Positions 51,791 through 53,237 of a stretch of DNA of 64,000 bases are shown here, piece by piece; position 1 is the first letter of the stretch, and every line of letters begins with the position of its first letter. Under the pieces are notes generated by a model. The model searched no databases, was not told where the DNA came from, and was given only the letters and a program-made list of their open reading frames with translations. Source of the stretch: Dehalococcoidia bacterium. GTDB taxonomy: Bacteria; Chloroflexota; Dehalococcoidia; Plut-88900. The stretch lies in contig OZ240215.1 in assembly GCA_965197585.1 (NCBI GenBank), forward strand, positions 1,344,001 to 1,408,000, given 5' to 3'. The position numbers and the translations under genes were made by a program.

Positions 51791-52075
51791 GTCATCCCGA
51801 GGTCCCGCGCTGAAAGTCCGCCGAGGCAGGAGGAATCTCGGACTCGCCTCCTCCCGAGGGGAGCCTGTCCGACTAAGGCGGATCATTCCGGCCGCCGAGA
51901 ACCGGCTATAAGTGCGCCGAGGCGCGAATCCATCCCCAGGGGCTGAGGGGCCGCTCATCCTGAGCTCCGTCGAAGGGTCGAGCGGGGGACGGCCCACCAT
52001 GTCAATCCGTCGTGCTTATCTTGACTCCCACCCAACCCTCTTAACCCCGTCATTCCGAGGCCCCGCGAGGAATCT
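51791..52075. repeat. Cluster of REP-like palindromic repeats
   Basis: gtcatcccgagg...gaggaatct (51791-51838), ccgctcatcctgagctccgtcgaaggg (51951-51977), gtcattccgaggccccgcgaggaatct (52049-52075); related to 3566-3826. Confidence 0.75.
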
Positions 52076-53183
52076 TGTGTGACGAAGCAGTGATAGAGTT
52101 AGGGTCTCGGGGTGCGGCAGGCCGTAGGAATCGTGGTCCTTCAAGACCGAGCTCTAGCATGGGCCGCCGTACCCTCTCTCATCTAAGCCCGTACAGTTGC
52201 CCGGGTCAACAACCCGTACCTGCAAGAAAGGGATAACATGAGTCAAGACTCCGTCATAGGCATCGACGTCAGTAGTCAGTTCCTCGACCTTCACATCCTC
52301 CCCCAAGGCCAGGCCGCCAGACATCCCAACGATGCTGAGGGTATCAGAGAGATCCTCCAATTGGCCAAGGACCTCAATGTCACCCTCATCGTCATGGAGG
52401 CCACCGGCGGCCTCGAGAGGCCCTTGGCTTTGGAGTGTGGCCTTCTTAAGATACCTACTGCAGTCATGAACCCCAGGCAGATCAGGGACTTCGCTCGCTC
52501 CACCGGTAGGCTGGCCAAGACCGATGCCATCGACGCCCACTCCATCGCCCTCTTCGCCTTCACCCTCAGGCCCCAACCCCGCCCTCTCCCAGACCCTCAA
52601 GCAGCCCATCTCAAGGCCCTCCTCGCCCGCAGACGGCAGCTCATCGACATGAAAGCCGCCGAGTCCCTTCGCCTCAATCGTGCCCTCGACCCCCTTCTTC
52701 CCAGCCTCCACAAACACATCCTCTTCCTCTCCCAGGAACTGGACGACCTGGACAAGGAGATTGACGACCTCATTAACTCCAACTCCCTCTGGAAGGGCAA
52801 GCTCAACCTCCTCATGGATGTCCCCGGTATAGGCTCCGTATCCTCCTTCACCCTCGTAGGCTCTCTTCCCGAACTCGGCTCCCTCAACCGTAAGCAGATC
52901 GCCGCCCTCGTCGGCGTCGCTCCCTTGAACAGGGACAGTGGCTCTCATAGGGGAAGACGTTCCATCTGGGGCGGCCGGGCTAACATCAGATCCGCACTCT
53001 ACATGGCCACAATGAGCGCCAGAACCCATAACCCTCCTATCAAAGCCTTCTACGAGCAACTCCTCGCTGCCGGCAAGCCCGGCAAGGTTGCACTCGTCGC
53101 CTGCATGCGTAAGCTCCTCACCATCCTTAACGCCATGATCAGAGACAACTCCCCTTGGAATCCCCTCCCCAAACACAGTTGCT
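52076..53183 (+). mobile_element. IS110-family insertion sequence (about 1108 bp) inserted at a CT core in a REP-like repeat
   Basis: CT at both junctions (52074-75, 53182-83); removing the element restores gaggaatCTaggacttgcc, which resembles the empty copy gaggaatCTcggactcgcc at 51830. Confidence 0.85.
52105..52235 (+). ncRNA. Putative IS110 bridge RNA in the left non-coding end
   Basis: Two loops carry target guides (AGGAATC, TCTAG) and donor guides (ACAGTTGC, GCAAG) matching the inferred target and circle junction; ends approximate. Confidence 0.75.
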
Positions 53184-53185
53184 AG
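52238..53185 (+). CDS. IS110 family transposase/recombinase
   Basis: DEDD RuvC-like residues (GIDVS, MEATG, KTDAIDA), VPGIG, GVAP..DSG serine loop, ACMRKLL. Confidence 0.96.
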
Positions 53186-53237
53186 GACTTGCCCTCTCAC
53201 GCCCTTCCTAGCCTTCCTTCCCCTCCCCCTTGGTAAC

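Follow-up and report, generated by a model that had tools for sequence, protein, structure and literature searches.

The DNA analyzed here, called the window below, is a 64,000-nucleotide stretch of the genome of a Dehalococcoidia bacterium (GenBank assembly GCA_965197585.1, contig OZ240215.1, positions 1,344,001 to 1,408,000 of the forward strand); positions without further specification refer to it. The source genome is a single 3.43-Mb contig and is 91.9% complete. The part of interest contains a hairpin repeat which is directly followed by an insertion sequence (IS) of the IS110 group. The IS begins with a 162-nt left end upstream of a recombinase gene (Table 1). A first-pass annotation made from the sequence had proposed that a bridge RNA aimed at the hairpin repeat can be decoded from this left end, and all of its coordinates agree with the sequence. 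Our analysis makes it very probable that the element is an intact IS110-group IS which carries a bridge RNA in its left end and encodes a recombinase of the DEDD/Ser type. It is a clear new case of a system that is already known, and its mechanism is not new.

The recombinase was assigned by domain and structure searches. Pfam revealed the domains DEDD_Tnp_IS110 (PF01548; 2.7e-21), which represents a RuvC-like DEDD domain, and Transposase_20 (PF02371; 1.4e-17), which represents the Tnp domain containing the catalytic serine, and the only matches among solved structures were the transposases of ISCro4 (1.9e-38) and IS621 (2.4e-37). Residues D10, E54, D96, D99 and S234-G235 align with D11, E60, D102, D105 and S241-G242 of IS621, where D11, E60, D102, D105 and S241 are described as a composite active site (PMC11208158). 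The motifs GIDVS, MEATx, KTDAxDA and SGS are also conserved with ISCro4. The gene follows the RNA closely, with the GGG of the donor-loop basal stem (52230-32) ending 5 nt before the ATG. The ORF does not supply its own stop codon; the first two target bases complete a TAG in the window copy and a TAA in three other copies of the genome (c4, c5 and c7, see below). In a sister genome (OY764147.1) the copies at CTGG targets (L032-L038) have no stop at the junction. There the frame enters the flank, resulting in 344-386 aa in the six full-length copies. The earlier description of an intact, compact ortholog of 315 aa agrees with the open frame, both domains and the catalytic residues; as to compactness, the protein is only slightly smaller than that of IS621 (residues 1-326 as given in PMC11208158).

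The ends of the element were determined by comparison of all copies in the source genome. Seven copies (c1 to c7) were found, with identities of 100, 99, 99, 96, 91, 86 and 87%. All seven start with TGTGTGACG right after CT and finish with ACAGTTGCT. Long terminal inverted repeats are absent, and the ends are defined together with a 2-nt core CT at both junctions (52074-75 and 53182-83). In empty sites the match to the left flank runs up to the left CT and that to the right flank begins at the right CT, giving an overlap of exactly 2 nt. The boundaries and the CT core proposed in the first-pass annotation are correct. The right end ..AGTTGCT and the left end TGTAT are conserved even in relatives of about 50% identity. 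The copies c1-c3 occupy different sites, their proteins are identical and their DNA is 99-100% identical. Together with 7 further copies at other sites in sister genomes, this points to recent movement of the family.

The hairpin repeat immediately precedes the IS in all seven copies. Its consensus, GTCATTCCGAGGC[C/T]CCGCGAGGAATCT, was found 125 times in the genome when up to 5 substitutions were allowed. At position pair 5-22 of its stem ATTCC/GGAAT, 83 copies have T-A, 34 have C-G and 8 have other bases, which represents a compensatory variant. Six of the 125 hairpins are occupied by the IS, the hairpin of the seventh copy being too diverged for matching, and 18 unoccupied hairpins read AGGAATCT followed by AGG. 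The left flank is AGGAATCT in five IS copies, AGGGATCT in one and AGGAACCT in one; the two variant sites read AGGGATC (one mismatch to the guide) and AGGAACC, where the changed base still permits a U.G wobble. The empty target predicted by the first-pass annotation, GAGGAATCTAGGA, was found exactly and occurs 16 times in the genome, and AGGAATCTAGG occurs 22 times compared to 1.0 expected from base composition. At one such empty site (G000:C1:384560) the 30 nt after CT are identical to the right flank of the window copy. The commonest sequences after the hairpin in the genome are AGGAC (24), AAGGC (16) and GGGG-type sequences (about 29), which correspond to the three flank classes of the right target guides (see below). 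Other copies with different boundaries or unrelated flanks, which would have spoken against the annotated element, were not observed, since 7/7 copies share the ends and the repeat.

The first-pass annotation had called the repeat REP-like, after repetitive extragenic palindromes (REP). Shape and copy number agree with this designation. However, a search for the Y1 (RAYT) transposase family PF01797 gave 0 matches in the 91.9%-complete genome, while 6/14 control genomes gave matches. The designation REP-like therefore refers to shape and copy number alone, and on this search the repeat is not a RAYT-associated REP in the strict sense.

The hairpins are distributed unevenly between the strands, 82/125 being located on the plus strand; the contig contains 30.8% C and 28.4% G on the given strand. 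At many places a different IS ends (...ctgtcaacgaattacctgacatcc) directly against the 5' arm of the hairpin (L089 600-665, corresponding to G000:C1:1224000-1224065, and about 15 similar places). This IS end lies beside the C-terminal end of an unclassified 183-aa open reading frame (ORF), and the hairpin there begins with ACAATTCC instead of GTCATTCC. The hairpin was also considered as part of another mobile element. This idea was rejected, the recurring left neighbour 'aattacctgacatcc' being the end of the different IS and lying outside the repeat. Apparently, two unrelated IS families use the hairpin repeat.

The structure of the putative bridge RNA was investigated by a structural alignment (A1) of 32 sequences of relatives, into which four helices were written from the stems given in the first-pass annotation. 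The outer stem of the first-pass annotation, gggtgcggc (52110-18) with gccgtaccc (52166-74), belongs to helix 1 and contains one G.U pair. Overall, 94.8% of the alignment cells are paired, and 16/26 pairs have changed on both sides. Helix 1 consists of 14 pairs, 9 of them with compensatory changes, with 93.7% of cells paired. Helices 2 and 4, which form the distal hairpins of the target-binding and the donor-binding loop, have 4 pairs each; 3 pairs of each helix show compensatory changes, and all cells (100%) are paired. The short helix 3, the basal stem of the donor-binding loop, is uninformative with respect to covariation; two of its 3 pairs are invariant in 31/31 distinct rows and the third is kept in 30/31. 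In the controls 0/500 shuffles reached any of the five measures, and slid controls paired at most 47.8%. RNAalifold independently recovered the same four helices and, in addition, an invariant pairing of UUGC with GCAA that joins the two donor guides. When the genome was searched with a covariance model made from A1, 9 loci were found, namely the 7 IS copies and two other IS110 lineages. The single-sequence fold of 52076-52240 was not better than shuffles (z -0.59) and was therefore dropped. The proposed fold of the left end is upheld by covariation in the four helices, not by single-sequence energy, and the structure rests on comparison across relatives.

Table 1: Features of the IS110-group element and its insertion site in the window.
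Feature	Positions	Strand	Remarks
REP-like hairpin repeat, left half of target (GTCATTCCGAGGCCCCGCGAGGAATCT)	52049-52075	+	ends with the left copy of the CT core
IS110-group insertion sequence	52076-53183	+	1,108 bp with the CT core counted once
Predicted bridge RNA gene, target-binding loop then donor-binding loop	52105-52234	+	about 130 nt; covariance model R1 full length, 119.3 bits
Target-loop basal stem, 5' strand	52109-52123	+	pairs with 52162-52174
Target-loop basal stem, 3' strand	52162-52174	+	helix 1
Left target guide window TAGGAATCG	52125-52133	+	AGGAATC (52126-32) equals the top-strand left flank through the core C
Target-loop distal hairpin GGTC / GACC	52135-52148	+	ggtc 52135-38, gacc 52145-48
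Right target guide GCUCUAG	52151-52157	+	complementary to core plus right flank CTAGGAC; TCTAG at 52153-57
Likely handshake guide CA	52158-52159	+	complementary to TG, the last two right-end bases before the core
Donor-loop basal stem, 5' strand CCC	52188-52190	+	pairs with GGG 52230-32
Left donor guide ACAGUUGC (ACAGTTGC)	52193-52200	+	identical to the right end 53175-53182, 8 nt
Donor-loop distal hairpin GGGT / ACCC	52203-52215	+	cgggt 52202-06, acccg 52212-16
Right donor guide CUGCAAG	52220-52226	+	against core plus left end CTTGTGT 4 Watson-Crick pairs and 2 wobbles; GCAAG at 52222-26
Recombinase gene, 315 aa	52238-53185	+	stop TAG consists of core T and AG of the right flank
Right end (left donor half ACAGTTGC) and right copy of the CT core	53175-53183	+	identical in 7/7 copies
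Right half of target AGGACTT	53184-53190	+	start of a longer repeat unit often trailing the hairpin; AGGAC follows 24/125 hairpins

The layout described for IS621 has left guides which pair with the bottom strand, right guides which pair with the top strand, and the core as part of each pairing (PMC11208160). Left guides of this kind therefore have the same sense as the top strand. The target-loop plus donor-loop arrangement of the first-pass annotation holds, and each of its four guide segments falls into the matching column of the 32-sequence alignment. For the right target guide, position and complementarity of the annotated TCTAG were confirmed; the guide is better read as the 7-nt segment GCUCUAG. 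To examine chance matching, the 162-nt leader was subjected to 20,000 dinucleotide shuffles. Of these, 225 contained the 7-mer from the left flank, 31 contained the 8-mer from the right end, and 0 contained both. The guide matches in the leader are not explained by chance. The GCAAG of the right donor guide is nearly invariant across the clade. One relative (G083b) has ACGGTTGC in the left donor guide and also at its right end; covariation of the donor loop is limited to this one variant.

The other copies allowed a comparison of each target guide with its own flank, which had been named as a check of the first-pass proposal. In c1-c3 the right guide GCUCUAG faces core plus flank CTAGGAC with 5 Watson-Crick pairs, 1 G.U wobble and 1 mismatch. 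The guide GUCUUAG is present in three copies; it faces CTAAAGC in c4 (5 Watson-Crick pairs, 1 wobble), CTAAGGC in c5 (6 Watson-Crick pairs, 1 wobble) and CTAGGAC in c6 (6 Watson-Crick pairs, 1 wobble). Copy c7 combines GCCUUAG with CTAAGGC and matches at 7/7 positions. In the sister genome OY764147.1, a Dehalococcoidia metagenome-assembled genome, there are 7 copies of about 83% protein identity, of which 7/7 have the guide CCCCAG and 7/7 the flank CTGGGG. A third genome (OZ244800.1) has UCUUAG and CTAACG. Thus, over the source and the two sister genomes the three right-guide states CUAG, UUAG and CCAG go with the flanks CTAG, CTAA and CTGG. The left guide window matches the flank at 7/9 positions in c1-c5. 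Its AGGAAUC is constant in the group of close relatives, and the target is likewise constant. In L019, one of the two other IS110 lineages found with the covariance model in the source genome, the flank is a different one, and the right guide of this lineage agrees with it at 7/7 positions.

A Fisher-type count on the 7 local copies is too small for significance, and the sister genomes and the wider clade were used for statistics. When 301 genomes of the class were searched at the protein level, 37 of them gave matches, including the source genome (E up to 1e-20). Several genomes contain multi-copy families at about 50% identity, from which 20 further copies were added with their ends placed by the conserved motif. 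Duplicate loci (L039-L041), loci without the pair of end motifs (L054, L056, L058, L059, L060, L062, L063 and L067) and a partial locus (L065) were excluded. The retained set comprises 53 insertions, corresponding to 40 unique guide/site pairs and 27 guide families, in which the poor rows L042, L047 and L068 are counted. The left guide showed a mean of 4.65 matches over 7 non-core positions with cognate sites versus 2.04 with non-cognate sites. For the right guide 4.17 matches over 5 non-core positions were obtained with cognate versus 1.40 with non-cognate sites. When sites were permuted among guide families, the observed sum was reached in 0/20,000 permutations for each of the two target guides. 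Both target guides track the flanks, and it is this covariation, rather than a single match, which supports the view that they read the insertion site.

These results also bear on an alternative in which the element is an IS110-family IS whose protein recognizes the hairpin by its shape, and in which shared ancestry or conserved element ends account for the guide-like matches of the leader as by-products. The use of one hairpin family by 7/7 copies and a left guide that is invariant among close relatives would fit such recognition, and REP structure is reported to add to target recognition by ISPpu10 (10.64898/2026.03.19.712850). However, within one genus the right guide occurs in three states that change together with the flank, and the tracking of flanks by both target guides extends over 27 families with unrelated sites. 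We consider recognition by shape in place of guidance very unlikely. Structure recognition could supplement guidance by the RNA; it cannot replace it.

Most likely the element inserts in the manner of IS621, and the following course would be expected. The target-binding loop would read the hairpin repeat. The donor-binding loop would read the joined ends of the element, where ACAGUUGC would pair with the right end and CUGCAAG would recognize the core together with the left end. With one loop of the RNA occupied by the hairpin site and the second by the joined ends, the DEDD and Ser sites of the recombinase would exchange strands at CT. Recombination at the CT core would insert the element two bases past the 3' arm of the hairpin stem. 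In addition, the CA at 52158-59 may pair with the TG of the right end, in agreement by analogy with the handshake pairing which PMC11208158 describes. IS621 is the model from which RNA transcription, a circular intermediate, the handshake step and the chemistry are inferred for the present element.

Several observations weigh against an intact and active RNA-guided element. The left target guide pairs with the core C but not with the core T (G at 52133), and the right guide of c1-c3 contains one mismatch. Among close relatives there is hardly any variation in the left target guide and the donor guides, and the covariation of these guides rests on the relatives of about 50% identity. The guide families are kin and not fully independent, and several have the same left guide. 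The single-copy relatives L042, L047 and L068 reach only 3/7 right-guide matches; their right ends may be misplaced. Copies c5 and c7 contain an in-frame TAG, a premature stop, and the remaining 5/7 copies are open. Public sequencing runs were examined as Logan contigs, which drop rare forms. In two metatranscriptome runs the contigs were short and touched only the ORF, at 52350-52721 and 52858-53090; the RNA gene was not covered, and such contigs cannot show transcription. The 13-mer of the circle junction, ACAGTTGCTTGTG, had 0 matches in the assembly, and a fitting joint was not found in the contigs of the public runs. A sigma-70-like promoter was not found in the left end or the upstream flank in a scan of 51900-53400. 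A junction promoter proposed by eye (TTGCTT, 17 nt, TAGAGT) has only 7/12 consensus positions and is too weak to claim. The features established for this element are the protein family with its catalytic residues, the boundaries of the element, the repeat as its target, an RNA fold supported by covariation, and guides which covary with the flanks.

Some further observations were made in these searches. The only promoter-like site of the scan (53358-87) belongs to the neighbouring element. Relatives of about 50% identity have TTGACT, 17 nt and TATCTT across the joined ends. Joints of 52070/52075 to 53277/53283 in the contigs have sides of 21-25 nt and do not fit an empty site; they look like repeat artefacts and were discarded. 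In L042 (genome G035), CTTGTATTTC stands directly after the right end. It is similar to the beginning of a left end and may represent a tandem or remnant junction or a misplaced end.

The premature TAG in 2/7 copies, together with the circle junction, RNA and promoter that were not found in the assembly, the contigs of the public runs and the promoter scan, would also agree with a decaying relic, the window copy being open-framed but immobile. We assign a very low probability to this explanation. It is opposed by the three copies at different sites with identical proteins, 99-100% DNA identity and intact catalytic residues, and by the 7 further copies at other sites in the sister genomes. Membership of the IS1111 group, which has the transposase family in common but carries its seekRNA downstream of the transposase gene and possesses subterminal inverted repeats, is contradicted by the anatomy of the element and hardly conceivable: the structured RNA lies upstream of the gene, there is no 3' non-coding region, and the ORF reaches the last base of the element with a stop codon that spans the right junction.

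The preferred interpretation, an intact IS110-group IS with a bridge RNA in its left end, was compared with known systems. IS621 from E. coli (PDB 8WT6; Durrant et al. 2024, PMC11208160; Hiraizumi et al. 2024, PMC11208158) is described with the same two domains, five catalytic residues and a CT core. In both elements the bridge RNA is located in the 5' left end, the target-binding loop precedes the donor-binding loop and the senses of the guides match, and the natural target of IS621 is likewise a repeated extragenic hairpin. The protein match is distant (E 2.4e-37). In contrast to the 177-nt RNA with a 5' stem-loop described for IS621, the RNA of the present element has about 130 nt and no extra 5' stem-loop, and its right target guide comprises about 7 nt instead of 4 nt. 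Further differences are a left guide whose pairing leaves out the second core base, an ORF which ends at the last base of the element and borrows its stop codon from the target, and a junction at which a clear promoter was not found. The ISCro4 transposase (PDB 9T56), compared by its protein chain only, is the best match among solved structures (E 1.9e-38). ISPpu9 and ISPpu10 from Pseudomonas putida (PMC12288879, 10.64898/2026.03.19.712850) are also described as multi-copy IS110 elements that insert into repetitive extragenic palindromes. By their description they are set apart by host phylum and repeat, and a downstream small RNA of the Ssr9 type was not seen in the present element. The IS1111 group (Siddiquee et al. 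2024, PMC11187229) shares the DEDD type of transposase and RNA-guided site choice, whereas its guide RNA is reported downstream of the gene and accompanied by subterminal inverted repeats; the present RNA lies upstream, and no 3' non-coding region exists.

A comparison of the RNA region with Rfam led to a separate observation. The minus strand of 52099-52249 matched sX15 (RF02234), a Xanthomonas small RNA, with 39.1 bits, which is below the gathering score of 55. The locus of an sX15 seed sequence on plasmid pXCV183 (L091 1879-2037) scored 150.9 bits with the sX15 model on the plus strand. The bridge-RNA covariance model matched the same locus on the minus strand over its full length (66.7 bits, E 3.7e-14), and a truncated ORF starting with MNGIGIDV is located downstream of this match. 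Because of the model match on the opposite strand and the downstream MNGIGIDV ORF, sX15 seems to represent the strand antisense to a bridge RNA of the IS110 type. The antisense partner of sX15, asX7, is described as verified by northern blot (PMC3300014) and on this reading would be the bridge RNA itself in Xanthomonas. The small ORF beside the Xanthomonas sX15 gave no Pfam family, and a tblastn search of the sX15 locus with the recombinase gave nothing significant. In the literature search no paper was found that mentions both sX15 and IS110. The reading could correct the annotation of RF02234, and with asX7 it would provide a bridge-RNA transcript verified by northern blot.

The surroundings of the window copy contain further repeats. 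The IS is located at the left border of a copy of an ORF-free structured-RNA element (53321-54041, right flank from 53184), and c2 has the same neighbour. The first 120 nt of the right flank of the window copy recur at several other places in the genome. About 100 bp upstream of the IS (51940-51990) lies a second repeat, GCCGCTCAyCCTGAGC...TCGAAGGGTCGAGCGG, which is unoccupied. This second repeat is the insertion site of the L019 lineage (flanks GCTCACCCT / GAGCAGAG; reverse complement of the right guide CTGAGCA) and also of an IS110 lineage in a genome of the same genus (G217).

It is possible, and we propose it only tentatively, that the lineage represents an unusually minimal natural bridge system. 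This idea combines the 1,108-bp element, the 315-aa enzyme and the RNA of about 130 nt lacking a 5' stem-loop with a last stem abutting the start codon, a stop codon borrowed from the target, and sister copies retargeted among sub-classes of the repeat by 2-3 bases of the right guide. The known mechanism is unchanged by the element. What it adds is a well-documented compact member of the IS110/bridge-RNA systems from an uncultured lineage of the Chloroflexota, whose guides can be decoded from genome sequence alone given several copies. The natural variation of guides and targets constitutes a built-in specificity experiment. The first-pass annotation had named a candidate programmable recombinase; if active in a foreign host, the enzyme would be a compact, naturally 'pre-validated' one with a long (7-nt) right guide.

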